DNA of 64,000 nucleotides from an uncultured candidate division Zixibacteria bacterium. Its GTDB lineage: Bacteria > Zixibacteria > MSB-5A5 > UBA10806. Location of the stretch: positions 32,001 through 96,000 of the forward strand of contig CAWFQL010000018.1 of NCBI GenBank assembly GCA_963817915.1, written 5' to 3'. Positions 483-59,429 of this stretch are shown here, piece after piece (position 1 is the stretch's first letter; each line of letters opens with the position of its first letter). The position numbers and the translations under genes were made by a program. The notes beneath the pieces were generated by a model. The model worked only from the letters and a program-made list of their open reading frames with translations, made no database searches and was not told the DNA's origin.

Positions 483-3400
483 ATGAAAATAGGATTTATC
501 GTGAAAACGGCAATTTTAGCTATTTTAATTCTATCTGCCGTGTCCTATGCACAAAACCTGCCACCGGTAATTAATCCGATCGGGCCACAGGTTGTTGACG
601 AGGGCGTTCAACTCGATGTCCGGATTGTAGCTACCGATCCCGATATCGGTGATATTATAACATTAACCGCCGACCAACTGCCACTCAATTCCATTTTCAA
701 CGATTCAACCGGCGGTGTCGGAGGCCTTGTTTTTACTCCAGATTATACTCAATCTGGCGTATATCAAGTTCGCGTGTTCGCTGCAGATACTGCCGGTCTG
801 GTAGATACTGCCTTAATTGATATAACAGTTAATAACGTCGATCGCGCTCCGGTGATTTCACCGGTCGCGCCGCAGACAGTCGCCGAGGGTGGCAATCTCA
901 ATGTTCGCGTAACCGCCGCCGATCCCGATGGTGATCCGATTACGCTGGTTGCCCAGCAATTGCCGCTTAATGCGACATTTACGGATTCAACCGGCGGAGT
1001 TGGTCATTTGGTATTTAATCCCAGCTTCACACAGGCCGGGTCATATACAGTTAGAATAATTGCCAATTCGACAACACTGGTTGATACCGAGCTCGTAAAT
1101 ATAACAGTCACCGGCACTGATCGTCCGCCGGTGATTACGCCAGTCGCGCCGCAGACAGTTGCCGAGGGTGGCAATCTCAATGTTCGCGTAACCGCCGCTG
1201 ACCCCGATGGTGATCCGATAACATTGATCGCTCAGCAGCTTCCGCCTAATGCCACATTTACGGATTCAACCGGCGGAGTTGGTCATTTGGTATTCAATCC
1301 CAACTACACCCAGGCGGGATCGTATACAGTAAGAATAATAGCCAATTCGACAACATTGGTTGATACCGAGCTTGTCAGCATAACAGTCACCAATACCGAT
1401 CGTGCGCCGGTGATTACACCGGTCGCGCCGCAGACAGTTGCCGAGGGTGGCAATCTCAATGTTCGCGTAACCGCCGCTGACCCCGATGGTGATCCGATAA
1501 CATTGATCGCTCAGCAGCTTCCGCTTAATGCGACATTTACGGATTCGACCGGCGGAGTTGGTCATTTGGTATTCAATCCCAACTACACTCAGGCCGGGTC
1601 ATATACGGTTAGAATAATAGCCAATTCAACGACTCTCGTTGATACTGAGCTCGTCAGCATAACAGTCACCAATACCGATCGCGCTCCAGCGATCACCCCT
1701 GTCGCACCGCAGACAGTCGCCGAGGGCGGCAATCTCAATGTTCGAGTTTCAGCTATCGATCCCGATGGTGATCCGATAACATTGATCGCTCAGCAGCTTC
1801 CGCCTAATGCGACATTTACCGATTCAACCGGCGGAGTTGGCAGGTTAGTATTCAATCCCGACTTCACTCAGGCCGGGTCATATACGGTTAGAATAATAGC
1901 CAATTCGACAACATTGGTTGATACCGAGCTTGTCAGCATAACAGTCACCAATACCGATCGCGCGCCGGTGATAACGCCAGTCGCTCCGCAGACAGTCGCC
2001 GAGGGTGGCAATCTCAATGTTCGCGTAACCGCCGCTGACCCCGATGGCGATCCGATAACGTTGATCGCTCAGCAGCTTCCGCTTAATGCCACATTTACGG
2101 ATTCGACCGGCGGAGTTGGCAGGTTGGTATTCAATCCCAGCTACACCGAGGCCGGGTCATATACGGTTAGAATAATAGCCAATTCAACAACGTTGGTTGA
2201 TACTGAATTAGTCAGTATAACCGTGACCAATACCGATCGTGCGCCGGTAATTACGCCAGTCGCACCGCAGACAGTTGCTGAGGGTGGTAATCTCAATGTT
2301 CGCATGACTGCTGCCGATCCCGATGGCGATCCGATAACGTTGATCGCTCAGCAGCTTCCGCTTAATGCGACATTTACGGATTCGACCGGCGGAGTTGGTC
2401 ATTTGGTATTCAATCCCAACTACACTCAGGCCGGGTCATATACGGTTAGAATAATAGCCAATTCGACAACATTGGTTGATACCGAGCTAGTAAGTATAAC
2501 AGTCACCGGCACCGATCGTCCACCAGTGATTACACCGGTCGCGCCGCAGACAGTCGCCGAGGGTGGCAATCTCAATGTTCGCGTAACCGCCGCCGATCCC
2601 GATGGCGATCCGATTACGCTGATTGCCCAGCAATTGCCGCCAATGCGACATTTACGGATTCGACCGGCGGAGTTGGCAGGTTGGTATTCAATCCCGACTT
2701 CACTCAGGCCGGTTCATATACAGTTAGAATAATTGCCAATTCGACAACACTGGTTGATACCGAGCTCGTAAGTATAACAGTCACCGGCACCGATCGTCCG
2801 CCGGTGATTACGCCAGTCGCGCCGCAGACAGTTGCCGAGGGTGGCAATCTCAATGTTCGCGTAACCGCCGCTGACCCCGATGGTGATCCGATAACATTGA
2901 TTGCTCAGCAGCTTCCGCCTAATGCCACATTTACGGATTCAACCGGCGGAGTTGGTCATTTGGTATTCAATCCCAACTACACCCAGGCCGGATCATATAC
3001 AGTAAGAATAATAGCCAATTCGACAACATTGGTTGATACCGAGCTTGTCAGCATAACAGTCACCAATACCGATCGTGCGCCGGTGATTACACCAGTCGCG
3101 CCGCAGACAGTCGCCGAGGGTGGCAATCTCAATGTTCGCGTAACCGCCGCCGATCCCGATGGTGATCCGATTACATTGATTGCTCAGCAGCTTCCGCTTA
3201 ATGCCACATTTACGGATTCGACCGGCGGAGTTGGTCATTTGGTATTCAATCCCGACTTCACCCAAGCCGGATCATATACAGTAAGAATAATAGCCAATTC
3301 GACAACATTGGTTGATACCGAGCTTGTCAGCATAACGGTCACCAATACTGATCGCGCGCCGGTGATTACGCCAGTCGCTCCGCAGACAGTCGCCGAGGGT

Positions 3401-6400
3401 GGCAATCTCAATGTTCGGGTAACTGCCGCCGATCCCGATGGTGATCCAATTACGTTGATTGCCCAGCAATTACCGCTTAATGCGACATTTACGGATTCAA
3501 CCGGCGGAGTTGGCAGGTTAGTATTCAATCCCGATTTCACTCAAGCCGGATCATATACAGTAAGAATCATAGCCAATTCGACAACATTGGTTGATACCGA
3601 GCTTGTTAGCATAACAGTCACCAATGTCGATCTCCCGCCTGTCTTTGGATCAATTCTTCCTCAATCCGTCTATGAAAATAGCGTACTTAATTTCAGTGTT
3701 GCCGCTACGGATACTGACGGCAATCTCATTACCCTTACTAGCGGCGCCTTGCCGGCCAATGCCACTTTCACTGATCTCGGCGGCGGCAATGGAAGCTTCC
3801 ATTTCGCGCCTAATCTTACGCAGGAAGGTAATTATTCAATCTCATTTTATGCTAATTCGGGAAGCCCCTCCATCAGCGATACACTCATTGTGCCAGTCAC
3901 CGTATTACATACAAATGCTGCGCCGGTGCTGAATCCAATCGGGCCTCAAAGCGTTAATGAAAACCAGTCTTTGCAGTTTAGAATTATCTCCAGTGATATC
4001 GACGGTACATTCCCAACATTAACAGCTCTAAATTTACCGGCCAATGCGGTTCTCACTGATAGTTTGAATGGACGCGGCCTGTTAGTATTCAATCCTAATT
4101 TCAGCCAGGCCGGTACTTATAATGTAATATTCATTGCCAGCGATGGCTTGCTTGCCGATTCCGAGAATGTTGCCATAACAGTTAATAATGTCAATAGACC
4201 TCCTGTGCTTAATCCCATTGGCAATCGTTCGGTTATCGAATCGGCGACTCTCAGCTTCAGGGTATCATCCAGCGATCCTGATCTGCAGACTCCGTCTTTG
4301 ATCGCTCTTAATCTTCCGATAAATTCTACATTTGTCGATTCCACCAACGGAGCTGGATTGTTCAGGTTTACGCCCGGATATACACAAGCAGGAACCTACA
4401 ATATTCTTTTTATAGCTTCAGATGGCACCTTGTCGGATTCGGAAATGGTCCGGATTACAGTATTCGATGCTGGAAACCAACCTCCTGTAATCGATCCGAT
4501 TTTGCCCCAGTCCATTATCGAGGGCCAGCATCTGCAATTTATAGTTAGAACCAGCGATCCCGATAGCACAATTCCGATTGTTCAAGCATTTAATCTTCCG
4601 CTCCATGCCGTTTATGCAGACTCCGGCAATGGACGCGGGCTTTTTGCATTCGACCCCGATTTTACTCAAAGCGGAAATTATAACGTTCTTTTCAGAGCCT
4701 TTGATGGATCTCTATATGATTCCCTTTGGGTACAAATTACGGTGATTGATTTTGGCCGTCCGCCGGTCTTGAACCCGATCGGACCCAGAACTATGACTGA
4801 GGGGGATACTCTACGAATCGTTGTCACATCCACTGACCCCGATGGCACCTATCCGCGGCTTTTTGCCGCCCCATTGCCGAATCACGCGACCTTTGCTGAT
4901 TCGCTAAACGGTCACGGATTGTTTACGTTTACACCTGACTTTACGCAATCTGGCATCTATACAATATTATTCAGAGCATCCGATGGAGCGTTGGTCGATT
5001 CAGAATATGTCCAGATAACTGTCAATGATTGGGGAAACCATGCCCCTGTCCTGGCGCCTATTGGACCTCGGAGCGTTAATGAGGGCCAGTTGCTTAGCAT
5101 ACATTTTTCAGCTTCAGATATTGACGGCACTATCCCGCAGCTTAATGTTATGAATATGCCCGCCAATGCGGCATTTACGGATAGCCTTAATGGCCGAGGC
5201 GCGTTCACATTCGCGCCCGATTATTCCCAATCGGGGGGCCATAATGTTTTGTTTATAGCATCCGATGGCACCGCCGCCGATTCGGAGCTTGTCGTCATAA
5301 CCGTGATTAATACAGATCGTCCGCCGGTGATTACGCCTGTTCCCGCTCAGACTGTGGCCGAAGGCGGCGCTCTCCGGGTTCGAATTTCATCATCTGATCC
5401 CGATGCCGATCCAATTACCCTCATAGCTCAGCAGCTTCCGCTCAATGCCACTTTTGTTGATTCAACCGGTGGAATCGGTGGATTAGTATTCAATCCCGAT
5501 TATACTCAGGCAGGATCATATCAGGTGAGGATTATAGCCAATTCATTGACTCTCGCCGACACCGAGCTTGTTAATATAGCTGTAACCGGAAGCGATCTGC
5601 CTCCTGTAATCACTCCGGTCCCGCCGCAGACAATAGCCGAGGGCGGGACTCTCGGGGTTCGCGTGACAGCAACCGATCCCAATGGCGACGCGATAACATT
5701 AATAGCGCAGCAATTGCCGCCTAATGCTTCATTTGTTGATTCTACCGGTGGAAGAGGTGGATTGGTATTCAATCCCGACTTCACTCAAGCCGGTTCATAT
5801 ACTGTCAGGATAATTGCCAATTCGACTACATTGGTTGATACCGAGCTTGTCAGTATAACAGTCACCAATACAGACCGCGCGCCGGTGATTACTCCTGTCG
5901 CTCCGCAGACAGTGGTCGAAGGTGGTAATCTTAATGTTCGAATAACCGCAAGCGATCCCGATGGCGATTTAATTACGCTAATCGCTCAGCAATTACCGCT
6001 TAATGCCACCTTTACGGATTCGACCGGCGGGAGTCGGCCATTTGGTTTTCAATCCCGATTACACCCAGGCCGGGTCATATACAGTCAGAATCATAGCCAA
6101 CTCAACTACATCTGGTTGATACCGAGCTTGTCAGTATAACCGTAACAAATTCAGACCGCGCACCGGTGATTACGCCGGTCGCTCCACAGACCGTAGCAGA
6201 GGGCGGCAATCTCAATGTTCGAGTGACCGCTAGCGATCCCGATGGCGATCCGATAACATTAGTTGCCCAGCAGCTTCCGCCGAACGCCACCTTTACAGAT
6301 TCGACAGGTGGAGTTGGCCGGTTGGTATTCAATCCCGATTTCACTCAGGCCGGTTCGTATACGGTTAGGATAATAGCTCACTCGACAACTTTGGTAGATA

Positions 6401-9400
6401 CCGAGCTTGTTAGCATAACCGTAACGAATATAGATCGCCCGCCGGCAATTACCCCAATCACTCCGCAGACCGTGGCGGAGGGAGCCCGACTAAATGTCCG
6501 AGTGACTGCAATCGATCCCGATAATGATTCATTATCCCTGACTGCCGAACAGTTACCTATTAACGCTGTATTTGCAGATTCGGGAAAGGGTATAGGCGGA
6601 TTAGCTTTCAATCCCGATTTTACCCAGGCCGGTTCTTACAGTGTGAGGATAATAGCTAGATCAACAACCCTTGTTGATACTGAATTAGTCAGTATAACTG
6701 TGACCAATACCGATCGTGCCCCTGTGATTACACCTGTCACTCCCCAGACAGTGGCCGAGGGTGGCCATCTCGCGGTTAGGGTGACAGCTTCCGACCCTGA
6801 CGGCGATTTAATAACCTTGATCGCCCAGCAGCTTCCGCTCAATGCTTCTTTCGTTGATTCGACTGGCGGAAGAGGTGGATTGGTATTCAATCCCGATTTC
6901 ACTCAAGCAGGATCATATACGGTTAGGATAATAGCTAATTCAACTACATTAGTAGACACCGAGCTTGTTAGTATCACTGTCACAGGAAGCGATCGTCCGC
7001 CAGTGATTACACCTGTCACTCCACAGACTGTGGCCGAGGGCGGGAATCTAACGGTTCGAATCACAGCTACCGACCCCGATGGCGATCCAATAACTTTCAT
7101 CGCCCAGCAGCTGCCTCTTAATGCCACGTTTACGGATTCTACCGGCGGAGTTGGCAGATTAGTTTTCAATCCCGACTTCACTCAGGCAGGATCATACACT
7201 GTAAGGATAATAGCGAATTCAACTACATTAGCAGATACCGAGCTGGTCAGCATTACAGTGACCAACACCGATCGTCCTCCAGTGATAACACCTATCACTC
7301 CGCGGACAGTGGCCGAAGGCGGTCATCTTGCTGTTCGAGTAACTGCCACCGACCCCGATGGTGATTTGATTACACTCGTGGCGCAGCAGCTTCCGCTAAA
7401 TGCGACATTCGTAGATTCTACCGGCGGAATAGGTGGATTAGTATTCAATCCCGACTTTACGCAGGCCGGATCATACGCTGTGCGAATAATAGCAAACTCC
7501 ACAACTTTGGTTGATACTGAATTTGTCAGCATAACCGTTACTGGCAGCGATCGTCCGCCGGTGATTACACCAGTAGCTCCGCAGACAGTGGCCGAGGGAG
7601 GGAGCCTCTACGTTCAGAGTAACCGCCACCGATCCCGATGGCGATCCGATTCTTCTTTCCGCACAGCAATTGCCGCTCAATGCCACATTTACGGATTCGA
7701 CCGGTGGAGTCGGCCATTTGGTATTTAATCCCGACTTTGCTCAGGCCGGATCTTATACAGTAAGGATATTGGCCAATTCCACAACCTTGGTCGATACCGA
7801 ACTTGTCAGCATAACTGTTACGAACGTTGATAGACCGCCGGTTCTTTCACCGATCGCGCCTCAGGTCGTGGCTGAAGGAGCTAATCTCAATGTCAGAATT
7901 ACGGCTGCTGATCCCGATGGCGAGCCCATTACATTAATTGCCCAGCAGCTTCCTCTCAACTCTACCTTCACCGATTCTACCGGCGGAGTCGGCAGATTAG
8001 TATTCAATCCTGACTTTACGCAGGCCGGCGCCTACACTGTAAGAATTATTGCTAATTCGACAACTCTGGCTGATACCGAGCTTGTCAATATAACAGTGAA
8101 TAATATCGACAGACCTCCTGTCATTACACCTGTAGCGCCGCAAACTGTTGCCGAAGGTGCAAATCTTAATGTCAGAATAACGTCTATTGATCCTGACGGC
8201 GAGCCAATAATATTAACGGCCCTTCAACTGCCGCTAAATTCATCATTTTCAGATTCAACAGGAGGCGTGGGTCATCTGATATTTAATCCTGATTACTCTC
8301 AAGCCGGACCATATCAGGTAATTATTATTGCCTCTTCGACCACTTTGACAGATACAGAATTTGTAAATATTACGGTGACCAATACCGATCGACCGCCTCT
8401 CTTCGTAGCCGTACCACCTCAATCAGTCTACGAGGACAGCGTACTCAATTTCAGTGTCAGCGCATCGGATCCTGATAACGACCTAATTACATTGACTCAT
8501 GACGCGCTGCCTCCCAATGCTACTTTCACTGATCTGGGCGGAGGGAATGGAACACTTCATTTCGCTCCCAACCTAACCCAGGAAGGGAATTATACCCTGG
8601 CATTCTATGCCAATTCGGGAACCCCGGTAATTCGAGATACCTTGCAGGTTTTCGTTGTAGTACTTCATACCAATGCGCCCCCTATTCTAAACCCCATAGG
8701 GCCGCAGAATGTCAATGAGAATCAGCGTCTCCAGATTCATGTCACCTCAAGCGACATCGATGGTACCTTCCCGGTATTATCGGCCCTAAATTTGCCGATC
8801 AATGCGGTCTTTACCGATAGTCTAAATGGACGCGGCCTGTTCGTATTTAATCCCGATTTTGTCCAGGCGGGCACATACAATGTCTTATTCATAGCGAATG
8901 ACGGTCTGATTGCTGATTCTGAAAATGTTGCCATAACCGTAAATAATGTCGACAGACCCCCTGTCCTCACTAATATAGGCAGTCGTTCAATTGTTGAAGG
9001 TGCAGCGCTCAGCTTCCGAGTGACATCTACCGACCCCGACCTGCAGATTCCAGTCTTGACCGCTCTGAATCTGCCCGTTAATGCATCCTTCATAGATTCT
9101 ACGAACGGCAATGGATTATTCAGGTTCAATCCGGGCTACACTCAAGCAGGCATGTACAATGTTCTTTTTATAGCATCTGATGGTGTTCTTGCTGATTCCG
9201 AATTAGTACGAATAACTGTCTTTGAAGCCGGAAATCAGCCACCTGTTATTGAACCTATAGCGCCTCAATCAATAGTAGAAGGACAGCATCTGAGCTTCCC
9301 TGTGAGATCAAGCGATCCCGACAGCACTATCCCAGTTGTTCAGGCGTTCAATTTGCCGCTTCATGCTGTCTATGCCGATTCCGGCAACGGCCGCGGTGTT

Positions 9401-12400
9401 TTCAGCTTTGATCCGGATTTTACACAAAGTGGCGTTTATAATGTACTTTTCAGAGCCTTCGATGGCTCGCTATATGATTCCTTGTGGGTTCAGATTACCG
9501 TCATAGATTATGGCCGCCCGCCGGTTCTCAATCCTATCGGGCCTCATTCTGTGACCGAGGGTAATTTGCTCAGCTTCATCGTTACCTCCACCGACCCCGA
9601 TGGTACGTTCCCGCATTTATTCGCAGGGCCGCTACCGCTTCATGCCGCCTTTGTCGATTCGCTCAATGGCCACGGGCTTTTCTCATTCACCCCTGACTTA
9701 TTCTCAGGCTGGAGTTTATTCAATATTGTTTACAGCCTCCGATGGTGCCATGACAGATTCGGAATATGTCCAGATAACTGTCATTGATTGGGGAAATCAT
9801 CCACCTGTCTTATCCGCAATCGGACCGCAGACCCTTAATGAAGGCCAGTCACTCAGCATTCATGTTATAGGTACGGACTTGGATGGCACGATCCCGTCAT
9901 TATATTCAATGAATTTGCCGGCCAATGCCATATTTACTGATAGCCTTAATGGCAGAGGCGCCTTCATGTTTTCGCCGAATTATTTCCAGGCGGGAGCGTA
10001 TTCAGTGTTATTTATAGCCTCCGATGGCCTTTTGGCCGACTCGGAACTTGTGGCGATAACCGTTAATAACATTAACAGACCGCCGGCCATTACTCCAATA
10101 GCATCTCCGATAAATATCGCCGAGGGGGATACTGCTCGGTTCGTAGTTATCTCATCAGATCCCGACGCGGAAATACCTATTTTAACCGCTCAGAATTTGC
10201 CATTGAGCAATTATATGTTCTTCCCTAACGGCGACGGCACCGCTGATTTCGCGTTCTATCCCGACTATACTCAGTCCGGTACCTACAATATAAGATTTAT
10301 CGCCACTGATCCATTTGCGGCTGCCGATACGGAAATGGTCACTATAAATGTTTCAAATGTCAATCAACCTCCGATCCTGGCTCCAATCGGGCCTCTATCG
10401 GTGATTGAGGGTCATACTCTTAACGTTGTCATCAGAGCCGCCGATCCCGATAGCACATTGCCCACTTTCGCGGCCCGCAATTTGCCCCGCAATTCCGCCT
10501 TTGCCGATTCCCTGAACGGTCGAGGTCTTTTCACATTTTCTCCCGACTTTGTACAAGCGGGGATTATCGATTCAGTTCTCTTTGTCGCCACCGATGGCGT
10601 ATTAAGGGATTCCGAATTCGTCAGAATAACAGTCATCGATGCGGGCAATCAGCCGCCTGTGCTAAATCCGATTGGACCTTATACCGTAAATGAAAATGAA
10701 GTACTTGCATTCCCGGTTAGTGCATACGACCTTGACAATACCACTCCTATTCTATCCGCAAATCATCTGCCTCTTAATGCGACATTCGTCGACAATATGA
10801 ACGGCACAGGGAATTTCGAATTCAGGCCGAATGCTAATCAGGCCGGTTCCGATACAGTCCATTTCTTCGCCAGCGATGGAAGTCTAATTGATTCTGAATA
10901 TGTCGTCATAACCGTGCTCAATGTAAATCAAGCGCCGATATTGAATCCAATTGGAAACAGAGTAATGACCGAGGGCGATTCGCTTGGAATTATAATCACA
11001 GCGTTCGACCCCGATGCCAATCCGATCATAATGACAACAGGGGCTCTTTCACCTAATATGGTATTCAGCCATATTAGCTCCGATTCAGCTTATTTCGGAT
11101 TCAAACCGACTTATATTCAAAGCGGCACCTATAATGTTCTATTTAGAGTCTCGGACAGCCTTCTTGTCGATTCGGAAATGGTTCAAATTATCGTAAATGA
11201 CGCCGGCAACCAACGTCCTCATATGGCGACAATTGATACGGCTTATTACGTGACTGAAGGCGATACGTTGATAATCAATGTCAGTGTCACCGATCCCGAT
11301 GGAAATACCGTTGTGCTTTCCGCTTCGCCGCTCGCGACCAATATGACCTTTGTAGACAATCTTAATAATACCGGTTTGTTTACATTCATGCCCAACTATG
11401 TACAATTCGGGACATATCCATTAACTGTACGAGCGTTCGATGGCAGCCTGTGGGATTCGCTTTCTACCGTCATCCATGTAGCCGAACAAGGCAACCAACC
11501 GCCGATTCTCAGCCCAATAGGACCCAGGACTGTTCCGGAAGGCGATAGCCTGGTAATCAACGTCAGCGCTATCGACCCTGAAGGCGCAACACCATTCCTG
11601 TTTGTGACATCGATTCCGCCCTTCTCGAATTTTACGGATAATCATAACGGAACAGGAAGATTCGCGTTCCACCCCGACTATTATTCAGCAGGAGTAAGAA
11701 CTGTCAGATTTAATGCCATGGATAATGGTGGATTGATTGATTTTGAAGACGTGCAGATAACCATTACCGATGTCAACAGGCCGCCAATTATAGTGTTCGT
11801 CGGCGATACACTTGTATATGAAGGTGATTCGCTTAGAGTGAATGTGATTGTCACGGATTCTACCGATGCCGTCCCTGGTCAACTAAATCTTTCAAATGGC
11901 TATATGCCTCGCAACTCGACATTCACAATTACCGGAAATGGCACCGGAGTTTATATGATCAGGCCCGATTATAATCAGGCCGGTGTTGACTCCGCGTTAT
12001 TCTATGCCAGTGATAATGATTCTCCTCCGTTGGGAGATCAGAAATGGTTTAGGATACACATCAGGGAAGCTAACCGCCGACCAATTTTCCTGCAGCCGCC
12101 CCCTGGAATAGTTAATCAAGGTGAAACTTTGATAATGAATCTTTCTGCCACGGACCCCGATAATGATTCGCTCAGATTCTTTATTAACTGCTCGTCCTGT
12201 AATCCTCTTATCCCTGCCCGTTCGAGCTTTGTTGATAATGGAAACGGTACCGCTCAATTCATTTTCAATCCTGATTTCACTCAAACCGGAATATTCCTGA
12301 TATATTTCGCAGTTACGGATGGACGGGCAACAGTCACGAGACCGACAATGATTCAGGTAATAGATATGGGTAATCAGATTCCCGTATTAAATCCGATAGG

Positions 12401-14060
12401 CCCTCTGTCGGTGATCGAGGGTGAAAGTCTTTCCGTTCATATTACATCATCCGACCCTGACTCCACACCGCCTGCCATCACCCTGCGGGGAGCCCCTGTT
12501 AACGCTGTTTTGCATGATTCCACCAATGGTAGAGCATCGTTTTTCTATGTGCCGTTGTATAATCAATCCGGCTCTTATGGGTTAACATTCAGAGCCACTG
12601 ATCCGCAGGGCGCTATAGATTCTGAAATTGTGAGCCTTAACGTCATTGAAGCCGGTAATCAACGGCCCCAATTGAGCTTCATGACTAATAGGACAATCAC
12701 CGAAGGCCAGACTCTCATGTTCAATGTCTTTGCATCCGATCCTGATTCTACATACCCCCGTCTGGCTGCTCTTAATTTGCCTCTAAATGCCACATTCGTT
12801 GATTCTTTACACGGAGTTGGATATTTTACATTTACACCGGATTTCACTCAATCGGGAGATTATCAGATTACATTTATGGCAATCGATTCTATGGATTCGA
12901 CTCTAACCGATAATCAGATAGTAGTGATCCACGTTCTGAATTACAATCGAAGACCTGTCTTTTTGCCGGCTGGACCGTTCACTGTCAACGAAGGCGAAAT
13001 TCTTGATTTCAACATAGTCGCCGCCGATCCTGATGGCCAGACTCCTCGGCTGGTTTCAATCCGATTGCCGCGAAACACAATTTTCACCGACAATCATAAC
13101 GGCACCGGCAGCATTAACTTTGCCCCTGATTTCAATCAGGCTGGTCTGGATTCAATCATGATATCGGCTATCGATAGTCTCGATCCCACTATGAATTCGA
13201 TGCTCAACGTCAGACTGAACATTCTCGATGTCAATCGCCCGCCTGTTCTTGCGCAAATACCGGATACCACAATTGGTGACGGATTCCTGCTGAATTTGCC
13301 GATTGTCGCAACCGATCCCGATTCAACCGTGCCTCTTTTATTCCATCGGGCGTTGCCGGATTCCTCACAATTTATTAACAACAATAATGGCACTGCCACC
13401 TTTAGATGGCGTCCGAGATTCCAGGATATTGGGATTTATCAGATCACCTTCGGGTGTATAGATCGAAATAATTCATCGCTGGTTGATTCTCAAGTTGTCA
13501 CTATCCAGGTTCTTACCGCGGGAAATCACCCGCCTGTGTTTAATCCAATCGCTAATCAGCAATTGCGAGTGCCGGATACCCTAAGTCTCCGAATTATGGC
13601 CAGTGATCTGGAAAATGATCCTCTGACAATCTCATATGAAGGAGTTTTGCCGATTGGCATGGTCTTCTTCGATTCGGGTTCGGGCGCCGCTTCGCTTACA
13701 TGGATTCCTACTATGGACCAGGGCGGCAACTATGAAATCACTCTGGTGGCTTCTGATCCCGCAGGTCTAACCGACACGGCAAGGGCAAATATTCAAGTCA
13801 TCGCCTATATCAGGGGAGATGCCAATGGCAGCGGAACCCTCAATGGTCTCGATGTCGTCTATCTGGTCAATTATTTTAAGGGAACAGGCGATCCGCCGGT
13901 TCCATTCGAGGCCGGCGATGCCAATGGAGATTCGCATGTCAATGGACTTGACGTTGTATATTTGGTTAACTACTTTAAAGGCGGTCCTCCTCCTCCACCG
14001 ATTATGCGCGTGGGGCCGGGATTGAAACCGGGGATGACCACTTTAGGTTCGAGAAATTAG
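483..14060 (+). CDS. Giant (~4,520 aa) secreted protein: signal peptide, ~47 tandem Ig/cadherin-like domains and a C-terminal dockerin; split into 5 ORFs by apparent 1-bp frameshifts
   Basis: AAGGAG RBS and signal peptide at 483. The ~93-aa NxPP...EG...DPDG...FxPDxxQAGxY repeats continue across ORFs 483-2732, 2681-6139, 6166-7728, 7670-9787 and 9600-14060. Comparison with sibling repeats places indels near 2641 (-1), 6030, 6111, 7615 and 9697 (+1 each). A duplicated GDANG...NGLDVVYLVNYFKG lies at ~13815-13985. Confidence 0.9.
840..3627 (+). repeat. Tandem array 1: 10 near-identical 279-bp (93-aa) Ig-like units
   Basis: The unit DR(A/P)PVITPVAPQTVAEGGNLNVRV...LVSITVT(N/G)T occurs 10 times with a 279-bp period. 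Confidence 0.95.
5314..8386 (+). repeat. Tandem array 2: 11 units of the same 279-bp repeat, more diverged
   Basis: Same unit as array 1, counted 11 times between the two six-domain blocks. Confidence 0.9.
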
Positions 14061-14070
14061 GAATGTTTTT

Positions 14071-15534
14071 ATGAAGATGGCTCGAACGATTCTTATCATT
14101 GCGATGACCTGCTATTCGATGCTCCATTCCGGAGTTGCGAATGCTGATCAGGCCACCGACGTATATGAGATATCGTTCGGGCCATCGACTATTGAAGCGG
14201 ATCCCGGTAATCCCGCTCTATTAGTTCCGATAGCTATAAGTACCACTCAACCCGTGGTCAGGATCAATCTGCTTCTGATTTACGATCCAATTCTAGTCAC
14301 TCCTACAACTATTGCGCCCAGTATGTTCTTTCAGAGTTTCATTTACGACATAAGTATTCCTGGCCGCATCAAGATTAGTATCATTACGGACATGCCCGCC
14401 CCACCGGAAGTTCCGCCCATATCCGGAGATACAACATTTGCCTGGATATCGTTTCGAATAGCTAATGAAGATATAGGTTATGACTATATGACTCATATCT
14501 TCTACTACGAAGATCCCTTTACGCCATTACCTGATAACTATATCATCCTCCAAAATAGCAATTTTATCGCTATTCCGGATTTGTCTCTGCTGCCCGCCGA
14601 TATTATCATAATCCATCCTATCTACGGGGATATCAATGCAAATGGATATGCTTATGAAATTGGAGACGCCGTTACTTTCTTCAATTATTTCATCGGCGAT
14701 ATCCATTTTACTCGCCGGCAATATGCCAATTCCGACTGCAATCGCGACGGCCTGCAGGCGACTATTTCAGACCTGGTCTATCTCTTGAGAATGATCAATG
14801 GCGATATAATTTCATCGATTTCGGATTCAGCCCGATACGGGGCCAATACAAATAGTTCAACCAATCGCATTTCCTCTGATTTCTTGGATTTAGACGAGCT
14901 TAATAAATCTGAAATATATATCGAGAGCGATAAAATGCTCGGAGGCGCTCATATTCAATGCTCGTACGATAATAGCGCTATTACCCCAATGGCAATTGTA
15001 TTAGGCGATGAATCAAATGATCTGGAATTAAACTATGCTATTTCTCCACAGGGAAAGATTGACGTTGTCCTTCTAAATAAGAACTCTTCCGATTTGCCAG
15101 GCTCTCTAAAATCGATAACGATATTCTACAAGGGCCAATTTAGCCAAAATGCGATCAGTATTTCTAATACCGATTACTCCGATTTTAATGGCCGACGAAT
15201 CGACGCTTCCATCAGAATCGATAACTTAAAGGGCTCTAGCCCTAATGCGACTATACCATCTGCGATATCGCTTTCCGGCTATCCCAACCCCTTTAATGCT
15301 GACGTCATGATTGATTATAATCTGCCGAATCCGGGCAACTATCAAATCTGCATTTACGATGTGCTCGGCAGGAAGGTGGCCACCCTCTTCGATGGTTATA
15401 AGGAAGCTGGCCGTAATTCTGTTCACTGGAACGCGCATAATGCCAATTCGGGCAGTCTCTCGAGCGGAATCTACTTTGTGCGCTTATCAGGAGAAAATTC
15501 ATCGAAAAACCTAAAGTTGTTTTATCTTAAATAA
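14071..15534 (+). CDS. Secreted protein with cohesin-like, dockerin, second cohesin-like and FlgD/T9SS-like CTD domains (scaffoldin/adaptor-like)
   Basis: Signal peptide, then ADPG...VPIAIST...INLLLIYDP (cohesin-like pattern). EF-hand-like pair GDINANG...IGDAV / SDCNRDG...ISDLVYL at ~14626-14802. C-terminal YPNPFN...YDVLGRKV...SGIYFVRL. Confidence 0.7.
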   Translation: MKMARTILIIAMTCYSMLHSGVANADQATDVYEISFGPSTIEADPGNPALLVPIAISTTQPVVRINLLLIYDPILVTPTTIAPSMFFQSFIYDISIPGRIKISIITDMPAPPEVPPISGDTTFAWISFRIANEDIGYDYMTHIFYYEDPFTPLPDNYIILQNSNFIAIPDLSLLPADIIIIHPIYGDINANGYAYEIGDAVTFFNYFIGDIHFTRRQYANSDCNRDGLQATISDLVYLLRMINGDIISSISDSARYGANTNSSTNRISSDFLDLDELNKSEIYIESDKMLGGAHIQCSYDNSAITPMAIVLGDESNDLELNYAISPQGKIDVVLLNKNSSDLPGSLKSITIFYKGQFSQNAISISNTDYSDFNGRRIDASIRIDNLKGSSPNATIPSAISLSGYPNPFNADVMIDYNLPNPGNYQICIYDVLGRKVATLFDGYKEAGRNSVHWNAHNANSGSLSSGIYFVRLSGENSSKNLKLFYLK

Positions 15535-15573
15535 CGATTAGCCGCATTTGTCTTTGTGGGGAGGAGAGAATCA

Positions 15574-18756: not shown

Positions 18757-21700
18757 ATGAAAAAAATCTTAGTTTTAAGCTTGTCATTAATGTTGCTTTG
18801 TTGTTGGATTGCTGCATACGCGGCGCCGACTAAAAACAACCAAAATCCATTAGTTACGAACAATCCGATTGTAACTAAATCGATTGAAAAACAAGCCGTA
18901 CAGCCGGTGCTTTCACAAGCTCCAAAGAGCAACGTGGAAAGAGTAGCTGCCGACAAAGCAGTAAAGGATGAGAACTCAAACGCACCAGTTCCTCCTCCAG
19001 ATCCCAATGTAATTCTTCAGGGCGGAGATGACTTCGCAAGTGCGACCGTCATCGGCGCGCTGCCATATATGGATAATGGAACTACTACCGGCATGACCCC
19101 CAATTATACGGTTTGCGGATATACAGTAGCTCCTGACGTCGTGTACTCTTATACTCCGGCCTCAAATATTTCCATAAAGGTTACCTTGTGCACCGGCACA
19201 ACTTGGGATACGGCTATCGGCGTAAATACTGATCCTACAACTCAAATCGCCTGCAATGACGATTTCTGCGGATTAGTATCTGAGTTAAGCTCCGTTAGTC
19301 TCACTGGCGGAGTCACCTACTACATCATCATTAAGGGTTATAGTACTTATAATGGTCCTTACCAGATCAACGTGACCGAAGTGGTCGCACTCACTCCCGA
19401 TGTTAGCGTGACTTTACCTGCGGAATTGCCATATTCCAACACCAATACCAATTGCGGTCTTGGCAATAGACAGAGCACTACCTGCCTTGGTAGCTATGAT
19501 GGTGGTGAAGACATCACTTATCAAGTCACTTTAACCGCTCCATTGTCTCTGAATATCGTACTGGATCCTGGAGCATCCGATTATACCGGTATGGCTATCA
19601 GCGACGCATTCCCGCTCGGCGCAACTTGTATCGCGACTTCCACCAATTCCGGCGTCGGTGCCCATGGTTTCTACGGCCTAAGCTTGGCCGCAGGTACCTA
19701 TTACATCATGATCGATACTTGGCCAACCCCCAATTGCATCCCATCATTTACATTGTCTATTCAAGAGAATACTACAATTCCTCCGCCTAATGATGCATGC
19801 GCTGATGTCACTCCGGTCGGAATAACTGTCAATGTTCCAACAACAGTGACAGGCACAACCGATGGAGCAACTTCCAACGATTGCGCTACATTCCCTGGCT
19901 ACCCGCTGGTATGGGAAGCCTTCACTACTACTGAAGCCATGGATATTACCATTGATATGTGCGGCTCCGGTTCCCAGTATGGATTGATGTACTTCTACCT
20001 GACAACTGATTGCGCTTGCACAGCCATCATTCCAAATAATGGTTATAATTGGACTACTTGCGCAGATCTTAACCCCACATGGGTATTCTACAACGTTCCT
20101 GCTGGCACATATTATGTGCCGATCATTTATGATCCGGCCAACGGCAATCAGGGACCCTACCAGATGACCTTCCTCGGCACTCCCCCCCCTGGGCCGCCAG
20201 CTAATGACGCTTGCGCTACCGCGGAAGCTATTGGCGATGTGACCGGCTTAGCTTGGAGCACGCTAGCCGCTACAGCCGATGGTATCGGTACTTGCATTAC
20301 AACCCCTGACATTTGGTACGTTTACACCGCGTCAACTACCGGACTCATTCGTGCCAGCTTATGCGGTTCAGCATTCGATACCAAATTGGCGGTATACGAT
20401 GGTAATAGCTGCAGCCCATTGCCGACCGAATTAGGTTGCAATGACGATTTCTGCGGTTTACAATCTCAGCTCGATTTCCAGGGTGTTCTTGGAGAAGAGT
20501 ATTTGATTCAAGTCGGTGGCTATTCTGGTTCTGGAACCGGCGTATTGACAGTCGGTCCTCCTCCTCCTCCTCCGCCAAACGATCTCTGCACAGACGTTAC
20601 CCCCGTTCCGCTGCCGCTCGGCTCAACTCTTACATTCAACGGTACAACAGTAAATTCCAACAATGATTGCGCTTTGTTAGGTACATATAACCAGGTTTGG
20701 GAAGCTTTTACAATTTCCTCACCTGCGAATGTTACCGTCGATTTCTGCACAACAGTTGGCTTTACAAATTATTATTGGGTACTGGTTCAGGGTTGTCCTT
20801 GCGGAAGTTATATCCTTCGCACCAACTACGATTACACAACTTGCGGCGATGGTCAAATAACTTTCTGGTTTGATAACCTACCTTCCGGAACCTACTATCT
20901 GCCCGTACTGGGTCTAGCCGGATCAGCCGATGGCCCATATACGGTTCATATTTCCGCGGCCGCGTCTCCGCAGCCGGTTTTTGGAGTAGATCCTACTTCG
21001 ATTACTGCGACTGTGGATCCCGGATGATATTGCCACCCAGGCATTATCAGTTACAAATAGCGGCACATCCCCATTGACATTCACAGCCGGCATTTCGATT
21101 GATGCTCCTCCAGTTCCAGGTTCAGTACCTCGCAACGATTATTCTAATCCATCTTCTGCTATTCGCTCAATCGATAAGAACTTTATTACCACCCCAACCG
21201 GTCCGAGTGGATGGTTACCATCATCTGCGACTGATTATTTCACAGAAACATTCTCTGATGGCGATTACACCACCAATCCGGCTTGGACAGCAAACAATGC
21301 CAGCACAAACCCGGCGTCTTATTGGACAGTCGTAACCGATCCATGGACATACATGACTCCTCCGATGACAAATCATGGAACCGGTTTCTTCGCGGCATCT
21401 AACGCTGATGCCGGCGGTTCCGGCTCAATTACCGATGAAAGACTTTCTGCTTCATTCACCGGTAACGGCGCGGGATACCTCGGATTGTCATTCTGGCTCG
21501 GCTACAGAGCTTTAGGCGATTATTTTGAGGTCTTGATTGACGGTGCCCAGGTTGCGATATACACCACAACTACAACGGGACCGCAGCTCATTGATGTTTC
21601 CGCCTATAATGACGGAGCTCCTCACACATTAACTATGCATTTCTATTCTGAGTGGGGCTGGTGGGCCGCGTTTGACGACGTAGTTATCACCGATGTCGCA

Positions 21701-28553: not shown

Positions 28554-28601
28554 ACACAACATGTTGTGTATCAACATACTTCAAAATACCATATATCGTG
28601 T
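28554..28601. promoter_or_regulatory. Tandem NrdR boxes (copy 1)
   Basis: The perfect palindrome ACACAACATGTTGTGT (28554-28569) and ATACCATATATCGTGT (28586-28601) match the acaCwAtATaTwGtgt consensus. They are offset by 32 bp and lie upstream of an RNR operon. Confidence 0.85.
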
Positions 28602-28687
28602 CTGGCCTATTTTTTTGTGTCATATTCAGGCTTGACTTTTTGCCGATTTTTGTTAAATTATTGTTAATTAACAAGAAAGGAGCTTTA

Positions 28688-34662: not shown

Positions 34663-34680
34663 GAGTGATGGGCCGATTTC

Positions 34681-47166: not shown

Positions 47167-48282
47167 ATGATGAAGCTAACGCGATTGATGCTGTCAGCGG
47201 TTATGGTCGCAGTATTCCCGATAATCGCATTGTCGTCCGTTCATAATGTTTCAATTCAAGGATTCGATTTTATTCCCGTCGGAATAGTTATCAACCAGGG
47301 CGATTCGGTTAGATGGACTAATAACGACGCATTTTTGCATACTTCCACCAATGATCAGGGAGTATGGAATTCCGGGGATCTGGCCACCGGCCAATCATTT
47401 TTATGGGCATTCGATTCAATCGGTGTATTTGCCTATCATTGCATTCATCATCCCACAATGAAGGACACAATAAGCGTAATCCCGGCCAACGGCTTTGATA
47501 CGCAAGTTAATATTCACGATAATTTTTATGATCCTGCCGTAATACAAATCAATATCGGACAGTCTGTTCGATGGGTAAACATGGGGATTCGAAGCCATAC
47601 CGCGACATCAAATACCGGTGTCTGGAACTCGGATACGCTCGCGCACGGAGAATTTTATGTATTCACCTTCGCGAATGAGGGAGTATTCCATTATCACTGC
47701 CTTGTTCACGGTCTTCTCATGGCGGGTACCATAATTGTCGGCAAGCCCGATTCGGTCCAATTTGATATTAGAACTGTCGATTTTTCATTTACTCCTGCTG
47801 ATTCTACCATCAGAATGGGCCAGAATGTGCGCTGGATCAATTTTGGTACCATGCCTCACACATCAACTGAAATTAACGCCCATCTATGGGATTCGGGTAC
47901 TCTAAATCCCGGCGATGTTTTTACGCTCCATGCCGATACTGCAGGGGATTTTCATTACATTTGCACCTTCCATCCCGGATTGATGACCGGGACACTTCAT
48001 GTTTTGGACACGACGACAACCGGCGGATGCCATTACGTGATTGGAGATGCTAACGGCAGCGGCAGCGCCAACGGGCTCGATGTGACTTACATGGTAAATT
48101 ATTTCAAGGGCGGCGCCGCGCCTCCCTTAACTTGCGATTGCCCCAACCATGGCATCATATATGCGGGAGCGGATGCCAATGGAAGCTGTACTGTAAATGG
48201 GCTTGATGTCACCTATATGGTCAATTTCTATCGGGGTGGAGCGCCATTGCAATACTGCGTAGATTGCCCTCCCGCGCCTTGA
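47167..48282 (+). CDS. Secreted protein with three cupredoxin (type-1 blue copper) domains and a C-terminal dockerin
   Basis: GGAGG RBS and signal peptide. Three V.W.N....H...Y.C..H...M sets (YHCIHHPTM, YHCLVHGLLM, YICTFHPGLM). GDANGS...NGLDVTYMVNYFKG dockerin. Confidence 0.9.
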   Translation: MMKLTRLMLSAVMVAVFPIIALSSVHNVSIQGFDFIPVGIVINQGDSVRWTNNDAFLHTSTNDQGVWNSGDLATGQSFLWAFDSIGVFAYHCIHHPTMKDTISVIPANGFDTQVNIHDNFYDPAVIQINIGQSVRWVNMGIRSHTATSNTGVWNSDTLAHGEFYVFTFANEGVFHYHCLVHGLLMAGTIIVGKPDSVQFDIRTVDFSFTPADSTIRMGQNVRWINFGTMPHTSTEINAHLWDSGTLNPGDVFTLHADTAGDFHYICTFHPGLMTGTLHVLDTTTTGGCHYVIGDANGSGSANGLDVTYMVNYFKGGAAPPLTCDCPNHGIIYAGADANGSCTVNGLDVTYMVNFYRGGAPLQYCVDCPPAP

Positions 48283-55952: not shown

Positions 55953-58900
55953 ATGTGGCGTCAAATGCTATTATTCGTATCTGTCCTTTCTTTAGTTGCG
56001 GTTGTAACGCCATCAATAGCTGTTCAGCCTCAGGTTTGCTTCACGGAAAATCAAGGCCAATACGGAGTGAATACGGTCTTTAAGGCTCATTCCGGGCCGG
56101 CGAATCTTTATTTTTGTCGCGATGAAGTTGTATATCTCTTAGGAAGGTATAAAAATGAGCCGGATAAATCGCAATCGTTTGCAAATATGCCTTTCAAGCA
56201 TGCAATGCCAAAATCGGAGATTGAGACGATTTATTTCAGGACAAAATTCATCGATGCTAATCCCAACGTAGAAATTGTGGGCTTCGATAGACTATCCTAC
56301 AAAAGCAATTTTTTCAAGGGAAACGATCAATCGTTGTGGCATACTGATGTACCAAGCTACGGTTCAATTGTTTATCGAAATATATATCAGGGTATTGACC
56401 TTAAATATACAGGCCGAGGATCTTCCGCGAAATACCAATTTGAATTAATGCCTGGAGCGGATCCTGGCCTAATAAAGATTGCCTATGACGGTATTGATCT
56501 ATTAAGCCTTAATTCGAATGGCGATCTCCAGATTCAAACATCCTTCGGGACTGTGATGGAGAAGGCTCCTGTTATTTATCAGGAAATTAATGGTACGAGA
56601 AACTCAATAGCGGGAAGATTCGATCTCATCGCTCCCGGCATTTTAGGTTTCAAAATTGATGGTATATATGATAGCTCGTTTCCACTGGTAATAGACCCGG
56701 AACTAATCTACAGCACCTATTTCGGAGGCTCGGGTACAGATTTAATTGCAGATATTTACGTGGATCCCCAGGGATATATTTATATTGTCGGCTGTACTGA
56801 TTCGCCTAATTTCCCTACCGAAAATCCATATGATCCTTCCAATAATGGTTCTTACGATGCCATATTATCTAAATTCTGGCCTGGCGGAGATTCACTCGTA
56901 TTTAGCACATATCTTGGGAGTTCCAGTCTGGATTACGCTACAGGCGTAGAAGTTGATCCTTCTGGCAATTGCTATGTCGCGGGCAGAACCGACGCGGATG
57001 ATTTCCCCACTATTAATGCTTTTGATCCCACATTCAACGGAAATTATGACACCTTTGTCACTAAACTAAGCCCCGAAGGGAATTCGCTTATCTACAGTAC
57101 ATTTATAGGCGGAGGTTCGGGAGATGGCGGCGATTTATGTTTTGGATTAGATATTGATAATTCGGGGCAGGCATATATCACCGGAATAACCGCGTCCGGC
57201 GACTTCCCTACCCTAAACGCCTATCAGTCGATTTTGCGTGGCGGAGATGATGTCTTTGTTACCGTATTATCGGCAAGCGGAACCTCGCTAATTTTCAGCA
57301 CATTTCTCGGTGGGACAATGTGGGGTGATTATGGGTCTGACATAGTCGTAGATTCTGAAGGAAATTCATATATCACGGGACAAACTGAATCGCAAGATTT
57401 CCCCACTTTAAATGCGTTTGATTCTACAGCCGGGGATTGTAAAGCAATTGTCGCGAAATTTTCGCCTTCTGGAAACCTGGAATTCTGCACTTTTCTTGGA
57501 GGTGAAATTGCCCGCCAATCAGGCGAAGCAATCGCCTTGGATAATGAGGGCAATATTTATGTTACGGGCAGCACGACGTCCAGGGATTTTCCTACAGTAA
57601 ATGCCTATAGCGGACATCTCAGAGCCGGTGATATTTTCGTAAGCAAATTTTCTCCATCCGGCCAAACACTTCTTTACAGCACATTATTGGGCGGTTGGTT
57701 CAATGAGGAAGCCCTTGGCATAGCAGTTGACGCCGATCAGAATGCTTATGTTGTGGGAATTACAAATTCAAATGATTTTCCCATGGTCAACGCAATTGAC
57801 GATCAATGTGAAGGCGAGGAAGCCGTGATTGTTAAATTGCCTACTACCAGAGGATGCGTCACCTTCAGCACATATCTTGGCGGATCGGGAGCAGATGGTG
57901 CCTCGACCGTGGCCCTTGACGCGCAGGGCAATGTTTGGCTGGCTGGAAATACCAATTCTCATAATTTCCCCATGATTAATCCTTTCGATCCTTCCTATAA
58001 TGACAGTTATGGGGAGAGTGACATATTTATTTCAGCATATCAAATAGGCGATGTCATCGCCAATCCCACAGGTTCGGTAGGTGGAATAGTTACCGATATT
58101 CAATCAAATCCATTAGAGGGAATTAGAATATTAGCCTCTGGTACCGGAAGGGAGGATACTACTGATGCGCAAGGAGCTTATAAGATAGAAAATTTATGTT
58201 CCGGCTATGCTGATATCCTGACAGCTGATTCACTTTATAATGATACTTTGATACTGGGAATTCCCGTTAATTCTAACGATGTCACCGTTCTCGATATTAC
58301 CTTACTATCCAGCGGCACTGTATCTGGATTTGTAACCGATACTCTGATGCATCCACTTGAAAATGCCGTAGTAACGCTGTGGGGTAATCCGCCGATATTT
58401 GATACCACTGATGTCTCGGGGGCATTTTCATTTAACGACCTTAGACCGGGGACATATGATAGCTTAAATTGCCGACGAGATCATTATTTTAGTACTCTCA
58501 TTGAAAATATTTCAGTACAACCGGGCGACCAAACGCTTATTCCCATAACGATGATCGGCAAACCTGAAAATGTCAGGATTTGGTTTGGAAACCCCTACGG
58601 CAGACCAATCAATGTTATGCCGGGCGATCAAGTTCCTATAGATGTTTATATTCAAACAGCAGACACGATTTATATCGGATATTACCTCGCAATTCAATTG
58701 GGCGCTATGACCAATTATATAACCGGATTTACAAGCGGAACGTATGGAGCTGTATATTATCCATTCTCAGGATGGGAGGATGCCATTTTTCGCGAACCAT
58801 TATATCCTCCCGATATACCTGATGGTTGGATCAGCCAGACGGTAGGCGGTTTTCAGTCTTACAATGGACCTCTTGGGCCGCCAATGCATTTTCCAGAACC

Positions 58901-59429
58901 CACAAAAATTGCGACATTTGTAGCAACAACTATTAATGATATGTCCCTTATTGGCGATACTGTCGAATGCCTGGGATCAGGTTTTTATCCTGGCGTTGGC
59001 TGGGGTACGATTGCATTTGATTCTTTGGGCATAAATGAATGTTTTGTTTATGATTATTATAGCCCGATCTGTTTTACTACTACGCATGATTATCGCCCCG
59101 GCGACGCCAATGGCAATGGAGTATTTAACGGGTTGGATGTGGTGTATGCCGTGAATTTCCTTAAAGGTACTGGTTCGCCGCCTCCATCGGGTATGGATTG
59201 CCCACCCCATAGCTTCCTGTATGCGGCTGCAGATGCTAATGGCAGTTGCAGTTTTAACGGTCTCGATGTGACATTTATGGTGCGATATTTTAAAGGAGAA
59301 ATTCCAAGTGCGCTTTATTGCTCCGATTGCCCGCCCTCAGGGCTGAATCCGCCGGGCTCGGCTCTACTACCCCCTCAAGGGTCATCTTCAAAAACGACTA
59401 TAAATGATAACGTTGGATCCGAAAAATAG
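55953..59429 (+). CDS. Secreted SBBP beta-propeller protein with two carboxypeptidase-regulatory-like domains, a possible cohesin-like domain and a C-terminal dockerin
   Basis: FTENQGQ N-terminal domain ending LVIDP. Seven STYLGG...D..GN.YV.G.T.S.DFPT blades. G.V.G.VTD....PLE repeats. Dockerin at ~59100-59300 followed by CSDCPP. Confidence 0.9.
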   Translation: MWRQMLLFVSVLSLVAVVTPSIAVQPQVCFTENQGQYGVNTVFKAHSGPANLYFCRDEVVYLLGRYKNEPDKSQSFANMPFKHAMPKSEIETIYFRTKFIDANPNVEIVGFDRLSYKSNFFKGNDQSLWHTDVPSYGSIVYRNIYQGIDLKYTGRGSSAKYQFELMPGADPGLIKIAYDGIDLLSLNSNGDLQIQTSFGTVMEKAPVIYQEINGTRNSIAGRFDLIAPGILGFKIDGIYDSSFPLVIDPELIYSTYFGGSGTDLIADIYVDPQGYIYIVGCTDSPNFPTENPYDPSNNGSYDAILSKFWPGGDSLVFSTYLGSSSLDYATGVEVDPSGNCYVAGRTDADDFPTINAFDPTFNGNYDTFVTKLSPEGNSLIYSTFIGGGSGDGGDLCFGLDIDNSGQAYITGITASGDFPTLNAYQSILRGGDDVFVTVLSASGTSLIFSTFLGGTMWGDYGSDIVVDSEGNSYITGQTESQDFPTLNAFDSTAGDCKAIVAKFSPSGNLEFCTFLGGEIARQSGEAIALDNEGNIYVTGSTTSRDFPTVNAYSGHLRAGDIFVSKFSPSGQTLLYSTLLGGWFNEEALGIAVDADQNAYVVGITNSNDFPMVNAIDDQCEGEEAVIVKLPTTRGCVTFSTYLGGSGADGASTVALDAQGNVWLAGNTNSHNFPMINPFDPSYNDSYGESDIFISAYQIGDVIANPTGSVGGIVTDIQSNPLEGIRILASGTGREDTTDAQGAYKIENLCSGYADILTADSLYNDTLILGIPVNSNDVTVLDITLLSSGTVSGFVTDTLMHPLENAVVTLWGNPPIFDTTDVSGAFSFNDLRPGTYDSLNCRRDHYFSTLIENISVQPGDQTLIPITMIGKPENVRIWFGNPYGRPINVMPGDQVPIDVYIQTADTIYIGYYLAIQLGAMTNYITGFTSGTYGAVYYPFSGWEDAIFREPLYPPDIPDGWISQTVGGFQSYNGPLGPPMHFPEPTKIATFVATTINDMSLIGDTVECLGSGFYPGVGWGTIAFDSLGINECFVYDYYSPICFTTTHDYRPGDANGNGVFNGLDVVYAVNFLKGTGSPPPSGMDCPPHSFLYAAADANGSCSFNGLDVTFMVRYFKGEIPSALYCSDCPPSGLNPPGSALLPPQGSSSKTTINDNVGSEK

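Follow-up and report, generated by a model that had tools for sequence, protein, structure and literature searches.

We show that a 64,000-nucleotide stretch of DNA from an uncultured Zixibacteria bacterium (positions 32001-96000 of contig C18 in the source genome G000, hereafter the window) encodes five unrelated proteins whose C-terminal domains read as type I-like dockerins, and that these five are a window-sized sample of 63 such tagged open reading frames (ORFs) rather than a special set. The genome (3.33 Mb, 93.9% complete) also encodes 25 cohesin-class domains in 21 ORFs, 15 of which end in a type IX secretion C-terminal domain (CTD). These modules probably form a non-cellulolytic plug-and-socket system for surface display that is coupled to a type IX-like translocon, with CTD-bearing cohesin proteins as anchors, proteins with Ca2+ dockerins as cargo, and adaptors between them; the best reading is a general display kit rather than one five-part machine. 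The phenomenon is real and is related to known anchoring and adaptor pairs. Below, other G numbers denote genomes of relatives, C numbers contigs and L numbers loci. Dockerins with Gly-Leu at positions 10 and 11 of their repeats are called GL dockerins, and CohB is a second cohesin class. The window features on which the argument draws are the following:

14..400, + strand: CTD tail (TIGR04183, 39 bits, cut-off 23) of a gene for a cohesin-Ig-cohesin-internal dockerin-cohesin-CTD protein, which starts upstream of the window (C18:30268; Pfam Cohesin 44.9 bits)
483..14060, + strand: giant Ig/cadherin-repeat protein, about 4,500 codons and about 45 repeats, with a signal-like N-terminal peptide and a C-terminal GL dockerin
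13800..14024, + strand: GL dockerin of the giant Ig protein, short-linker, spacing 33 (Dockerin_1 31.7 bits)
14071..15534, + strand: cohesin (residues 30-183), internal dockerin (184-246), degenerate cohesin (270-390) and type IX CTD, from an AlphaFold2 model
15556..18348, + strand: S8 subtilase (Peptidase_S8 156 bits; Asp, His and Ser motifs present in the translation) with fibronectin/Ig-like domains and a C-terminal GL dockerin at 18130-18345 (Dockerin_1 29.9 bits; spacing 33; first repeat Gly-Ile)
18757..22855, + strand: Cys-rich secreted protein in two ORFs (18757-21027 and 21074-22855), with a long-linker GL dockerin at 22556-22807
47167..48282, + strand: three cupredoxin domains (Copper-bind 60.5 bits, three stretches), each with intact copper ligands His...Cys-x2-His-x3/4-Met as read from the translation, and a C-terminal GL dockerin (48028-48279)
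55953..59429, + strand: DUF7948, SBBP propeller, carboxypeptidase-regulatory-like domains, CohB and GL dockerin (59085-59339), from Pfam and profiles
58563..59081, + strand: CohB cohesin-class domain within this SBBP protein, directly ahead of its dockerin, from an iterative hidden Markov model, in which it is a seed, and from BLAST (E 1.5e-9 to the C18:8205 copy)
Dockerin motif repeats, one pair per protein: 13815/13914, 18145/18244, 22571/22697, 48043/48169, 59100/59229

A first-pass annotation of the window had described the shared ending as a near-identical duplicated motif of a single dockerin class. The motif itself stands: it occurs exactly ten times in the six-frame translation, at these places, and never in 200 shuffles of the translations, with Gly-Leu at positions 10 and 11 in nine repeats and Gly-Ile in one (18145), as had been counted. 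Pfam bore out the cargo labels as well (Ig/cadherin repeats, S8, three cupredoxin domains, DUF7948 with SBBP) and identified no catalytic carbohydrate-active enzyme (CAZyme) family on the five, in agreement with the remark that none was recognisable. The single class has two sub-types, the five domains having a common code, with a repeat spacing of 33 in the giant Ig and S8 proteins and of 42-43, together with extra cysteines, in the Cys-rich, cupredoxin and SBBP proteins. Among 58 two-repeat domains of the genome, 17 have a spacing of 32-37 and 41 a spacing of 41-45 with extra cysteines. The Dockerin_1 search that the annotation had suggested places two of the five window domains above the Pfam cut-off of 22.9 bits and the three long-linker domains below it (31.7, 29.9, 18.4, 20.4 and 18.0 bits in coordinate order); across G000, 30 of 33 matches pass and the long-linker sub-type scores low. 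A profile of the 58 domains matches 17 PDB sequences at E<=0.01, clostridial dockerins leading (best 4fl4_A, from C. thermocellum, E 9.8e-7), and the Ca2+-loop residues are kept in 123 repeats at N3 (122), N9 (119) and S/D/N5 (120), D1 and D12 being fixed by the parsing pattern. Many dockerins are followed by a Pro/Lys-rich disordered tail of 10-55 aa, such as that at window 59340-59426.

With a profile built from the genome itself, we found dockerins on 65 ORFs, in 63 of which the domain is C-terminal. The tagged proteins include 14 peptidases (five M14, three S8, three C25, and one each of M6, M1 and C1), three of them inferred across a frame break, and, by Pfam, LVIVD, FG-GAP and SBBP propellers, phosphoesterases, two beta-helices and Ig stalks. 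A crude signal-peptide rule accepts 37 of the 65, many of the misses being frame fragments or non-ATG starts. No catalytic family of glycoside hydrolases (GH), polysaccharide lyases or carbohydrate esterases was found in the 64 of 65 tagged ORFs scanned or in 12 upstream fragments, a check made by Pfam only, in which the beta-helices of two tagged ORFs were assigned no activity. In this sense the system is not a cellulosome, as we found neither CAZyme cargo nor a scaffoldin with a carbohydrate-binding module (CBM). The adhesion and electron-transfer roles proposed for the window proteins are guesses from domain content. Three secreted proteins of about 194 aa (L024:3896-4477, 7786-8367 and 12504-13088) combine the dockerin with a short Trp/Gly-rich N-terminal domain that has no Pfam family.

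The first-pass annotation had staked its proposal on the presence of a cohesin fold somewhere in the genome, and such folds are indeed predicted. Iterative profiles recovered the 25 cohesin-class domains, of which Pfam alone finds four places; structures were predicted for two of the 25, namely the 14071 cohesin and a CohB member other than the SBBP copy. In the model of the 14071-15534 protein (pLDDT 80), residues 30-183 adopt a cohesin fold (Z 16.8, rmsd 2.2, 133 residues aligned to 6kgc_A), the internal dockerin resembles dockerin 2ccl_B (Z 10.3, rmsd 1.8, 62 aligned), and the CTD region matches PorU 6za2_B (Z 10.8), while the second sandwich matches the cohesin profile (hhalign probability 90.9, E 1.1e-6). 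The CohB member, which Pfam misses, gave a model of pLDDT 96 with cohesins in all of the top 19 rows (Z 15.0, rmsd 2.4, 138 aligned). At most three cohesin domains were detected per ORF in G000, and most anchors have one to three. At least six complete and two truncated cohesin-CTD ORFs carry no dockerin of their own, and no CBM was found in nine cohesin ORFs scanned with Pfam or in the 14071 protein. The internal dockerin of the latter forms a separate class, nearly constant across 20 orthologues, and probably has a conserved, structural role. By its domain order, the SBBP protein could be cargo and adaptor at once.

The link to type IX secretion is an addition that the first-pass annotation did not contain. 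G000 encodes SprA (745 bits), PorU (688 bits), 11 PorV-family places over the cut-off and 183 CTD ORFs, and none of the 65 dockerin ORFs shares a frame with any of these CTDs. Among the best five targets per query, 40 of 61 cargos have a CTD-tagged paralogue, the cupredoxin protein among them, and in 18 of 61 the alignment with the paralogue stops no more than 25 aa short of either end of the cargo, and the junctions are sharp (in one example, 61% identity over 658 aa). The lack of shared ORFs, together with these swaps between paralogues, indicates that cargo paralogues end alternatively in a dockerin or in a CTD. A search for hidden dockerin-CTD fusions across frameshifts returned one case (C6:235062), with the dockerin N-terminal and the CTD past the frame break; in the other three dockerin/CTD neighbour pairs the neighbours have their own signal peptides. 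The genome also has two secretin loci, which resemble those of type IV pili more than those of type II secretion; in the genome, PilQ, PilM and PilT pass their cut-offs and the GspD, GspE and GspF models fall below theirs. On C17 (L105:2610-12583), genes for PorU and for a T9SS-dependent M6-like protein lie in one run with a PorV-family gene that has an insertion of about 530 aa.

We propose that cohesin-CTD proteins would cross the outer membrane through SprA and be fixed to the surface by PorU, and that the tagged proteases, propellers, adhesins and copper protein would be held by these anchors through Ca2+-dependent dockerins, so that, to judge from their sequences, the tagged proteins are probably clipped onto the cell surface. 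Mostly one cargo would sit on each anchor, and cohesin-dockerin adaptors, the SBBP protein among them, would add branches. Type IV pilus-like machines are able to export proteins. Solved SprA-PorV complexes bind the CTD fold in a shaped pocket (PMC10994853). Since a dockerin is not a CTD fold, the cargo would either be carried by a cohesin-CTD partner or be exported by another machine, for which a type IV pilus-like apparatus would be the candidate. The first of these routes leads to a bolder version, which we regard as possible but doubtful: the dockerin would be an indirect type IX address, in that a cohesin-CTD carrier binds the cargo in the periplasm, draws it through SprA and clips it to the surface. 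The exchange of CTD for dockerin would then turn covalent into exchangeable display, and each lineage would rewrite the code in step, giving a private, self-specific kit across the phylum.

Two stand-alone cohesins raise the question of whether the tagged proteins reach the surface at all. Encoded at L014:3801-4352 (C11:106800 in G000) and L040:3032-3637, they are Lys-rich, have a signal peptide and carry no CTD. The C11:106800 cohesin follows a dockerin-tagged gene in four genomes (G000 and three relatives), and the adjoining dockerin stays GL-like even in the two genomes, described below, whose code has switched; these cohesins could be periplasmic chaperones. It is conceivable, though quite improbable in our judgement, that tagged proteins are retained in the periplasm by such CTD-less cohesins or by unexported partners and that only CTD proteins reach the surface, a view in keeping with the absence of a CTD from every terminally tagged ORF and with the sub-threshold GspD, GspE and GspF. 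An Ig-repeat protein of 4,500-7,600 aa and paralogues of CTD-exported peptidases would be better placed outside, and the CTD on 15 of 21 cohesin ORFs likewise favors display.

Among relatives, the giant Ig gene lies directly ahead of the 14071 gene in all 17 orthologous loci with upstream DNA (of a set of 21 loci, three have no upstream DNA and one is paralogous), and the S8 gene follows it in 15 of 20. Upstream, C18:30268 is the last of five same-strand cohesin genes ahead of the giant Ig gene, so that the cluster at 483-22855 is the second half of a larger one; in regions hand-picked from cohesin matches, this upstream cluster recurs in relatives, including four genomes of distant families. 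In a search with capped match counts, the dockerin profile matches 116 of 121 sampled genomes of the phylum. Two of the others, G004 and G026, have 32 and 67 divergent Pfam dockerin hits and eight cohesin matches each; the remaining three (G066, G090 and G115) have one, no and two Pfam dockerin hits and no cohesin match, and they keep SprA. Relatives also encode larger cohesin proteins: a 1,556-aa protein of G085 (L211:397-5067) has an FG-GAP-like propeller, five tandem CohB domains and a terminal GL dockerin, and relatives have two to three tandem CohB. In G080, a tandem array of about a dozen genes of about 300 aa (C16:43001-57703) encodes a new CohB sub-type with either CTD or dockerin at the end, which we read as tag swapping within one array.

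The dockerin code differs between genomes. In samples from the 15 best loci of each, positions 10 and 11 are [IV][AS] in 14 of 17 domains of G122, and 15 of 17 domains of G080 have E-[LI]-x-D, a few GL-like domains remaining in these switched genomes. The dockerins of the giant Ig protein, of the adaptor and of the long-linker sub-type shift their code together, and the internal class is unchanged. Such a concerted, genome-specific shift across unrelated proteins argues for a shared partner. To this extent the earlier claim that all five window proteins dock on the same type of cohesin is supported; the choice of the 14071 cohesin as that partner is not, because its strand 3 varies within the GL genomes and reads alike in GL and switched ones; this cohesin therefore does not follow the dockerin code.

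This observation also bears on the strict form of the earlier proposal, in which the 14071-15534 cohesin receives all five window proteins and one complex combines adhesion, proteolysis and electron transfer. In its favor, synteny ties three of the five genes to the 14071 gene, the N-terminal domain of the 14071 protein has the cohesin fold, and all five dockerins share their code. Set against this, the tag occurs on 63 ORFs, the 14071 protein has one intact cohesin, most other anchors have similarly few, strand 3 of the 14071 cohesin ignores the code, and the cupredoxin and SBBP genes are 32 and 40 kb distant. We consider such a complex the least probable of the readings discussed here, and the specific five-cargo assembly is not supported as it was stated.

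CohB is the likelier partner of GL dockerins, ahead of the 14071 cohesin, although it is a lead and not a result. The start of CohB strand 3, which from profile alignments and residue numbering we take to match Asn37 of the C. thermocellum cohesin, is aromatic in 9 of 11 domains of G000 and in all six fetched from G085. In the switched genomes, where Gly10 is lost from the dockerin, a new CohB sub-type with Gly or Ala at the start of strand 3 (12 of 13 distinct) has expanded. If residue 10 of the dockerin and this cohesin residue face each other, small against large in one case and large against small in the other, the change would amount to a steric exchange. In C. thermocellum, Asn37 at strand 3 is a specificity hot spot (PMC12484212). 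CohB was detected in 10 of 10 genomes of the source genome's own order and in 3 of 111 outside it, a restriction to which we give no weight as proof, since the profile was itself derived from that order. When four families of CTD-bearing cohesins were scanned for columns that track the dockerin class, 1, 2, 5 and 9 such columns emerged, none decisive. In one complex prediction, CohB C18:25934 was paired with the 22556-22807 dockerin and two Ca2+; with controls not folded, the scores of 0.26 and 0.28 (mark, 0.32) speak neither for nor against the pair.

A further alternative is that the terminal dockerin works independently of cohesins, as a Ca2+- and disulphide-stabilised module bound by another receptor (for example, a PorV-like barrel) or by a surface polymer, with cohesins serving the internal class only. 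The dockerin occupies the exact slot of the CTD, the 11 PorV-family paralogues are possible receptors, 63 tags face 25 cohesin domains, and a class-tracking face was found in neither of the CohA families 30268 and 29397, with at most weak hints in 28402 and 25934. This explanation appears unlikely, given that at least six complete and two truncated cohesin-CTD ORFs have no dockerin of their own, that tags and cohesins are jointly missing where SprA is kept, that relatives encode tandem-cohesin proteins, and that the SprA-PorV pocket takes a CTD fold (PMC10994853) whereas the dockerin fold is helical and different.

Several points weigh against the display reading and the pairing that we favor within it. 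The best match to GldM reached 17 bits against a cut-off of 180 and GldK had no match in the 93.9% complete genome (the Gld search covered these two, with no positive control among 14 control genomes), which leaves the energising of the translocon unexplained. The two CTD-less cohesins look periplasmic, and the three genomes in which tags and cohesins are jointly missing were hand-picked from two families. At the start of CohB strand 3, four of the five domains of the G085 L211 protein have Ser, G028 has an aromatic residue in 5 of 7 and G119 in 2 of 7, and ordinary CohB of the switched genomes still has one in 5 of 7. The concerted drift of dockerins could partly come from domain copying, and, as a tree of 12 rows, with G079 left out as truncated, places G080 and G122 together as a sister pair within the GL clade (96/91), the co-change of CohB and dockerin amounts to one evolutionary switch.

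The first-pass annotation knew of no characterised example in this lineage, and our searches agree, with in-silico precedents in other phyla: the literature searched, which left most subscription journals outside, held no paper on Zixibacteria with dockerin or cohesin, none of the matches listed for SprA, PorV and T9SS (the type IX secretion system) named Zixibacteria, and no description of piggy-back type IX export was among the matches listed. The nearest precedent is Ca. Stygibacter (Cloacimonadota; PMC8542988), likewise a diderm of a candidate phylum and likewise proposed in silico, with S8 and C25 peptidases that carry C-terminal dockerins and a CTD-bearing cohesin protein as surface anchor. 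G000 has the same combination, in 15 cohesin-CTD ORFs and 14 tagged peptidases. In Ca. Stygibacter, however, tandem cohesins and CBMs are joined in a single scaffoldin of 3,755 aa, and GH18/GH57 proteins are among the cargo. In the Zixibacteria genome the cohesin-CTD anchors are small and numerous, the ORFs scanned yielded no CBM or GH family, 63 ORFs are tagged, the internal dockerins form a second class, and paralogues exchange dockerin for CTD.

The clostridial type I pairs and scaffoldins (C. thermocellum CipA/OlpA/OlpC, C. acetobutylicum CohA2, A. cellulolyticus ScaB/ScaC) share the folds, the duplicated Ca2+ loops and the near-symmetric repeats, as well as a lineage-specific recognition code (PMC12484212). 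They differ from the system described here in that the latter has a Gram-negative envelope, a CTD in place of an SLH or sortase anchor, no cellulases found, disulphide-rich dockerins, and Asn rather than Lys/Arg at position 18. The hypothetical "planctosome" of freshwater Planctomycetes (PMC6461901) is likewise non-cellulolytic, with peptidase-rich cargo including M14, and a Limihaloglobus cohesin-dockerin-cohesin protein (PMC11557425) is an adaptor with both modules, as here; in these sources, the anchor of the model is a lamin-tail domain, no type IX link appears, and fewer proteins are tagged (13 in Limihaloglobus). ANME archaea (PMC9012536) also have many non-CAZyme dockerin fusions and scaffoldin-like proteins that, like the G085 protein, combine a dockerin with as many as five cohesins, but in an archaeal S-layer setting with mostly solute-binding cargo. 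From Bacteroidota type IX secretion, which shares SprA, the PorV family, PorU and CTD substrates (PMC10994853), the system differs in that GldM and GldK were not found and in that one in three T9SS-like cargo families also has members with a dockerin instead of a CTD.

What cohesin-dockerin modules do outside cellulosomes is a long-open question, to which a concrete job and a tie to type IX secretion in an uncultured phylum would speak; piggy-back export, if true, would be a new mode of type IX secretion. The domains are small enough for production in E. coli, naturally switched codes offer both matching and non-cognate pairs, and they may possibly give new orthogonal pairs for designer scaffolds. 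The in-silico precedents in other phyla temper this interest, and the pairing is a prediction from sequences and models.

Many frame breaks occur across the G000 assembly. The giant Ig gene is spread over five ORFs, the first break, near 2641, being the deletion of one base from a short run of C (the only break resolved to the base), and its orthologues are single frames of 5,754 and 7,588 aa; syntenic orthologues of the two-ORF Cys-rich gene, of 1,085-2,141 aa, are one frame each. Sequencing error is the likeliest cause of the breaks in these window genes. On the minus strand, a patatin-like gene with an outer-membrane part (43584-46218) and a membrane protein gene (52338-53973) also seem to be broken up by frame breaks, as would be expected of an assembly prone to errors.

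Other genes of the window lie beside the cluster. A GH35-like gene at 23109-25283 (Pfam 122.7 bits over the N-terminus; no signal peptide or dockerin) follows it in 10 of 20 orthologous loci with 46-73% identity. At 28598-31151, a BNR-propeller protein with an M28 peptidase and a CTD, in two ORFs, is a CTD-tagged counterpart of the dockerin-tagged peptidases. The region 33982-39857 encodes a DUF4159 protein, a 1,119-aa coiled-coil protein with no Pfam or NCBIfam match, and a TPR protein that matches PorW/SprE weakly (E 5e-11, well under the cut-off). Finally, a TMEM260-like protein O-mannosyltransferase with TPRs at 40342-42984 (187 bits) could glycosylate secreted proteins.

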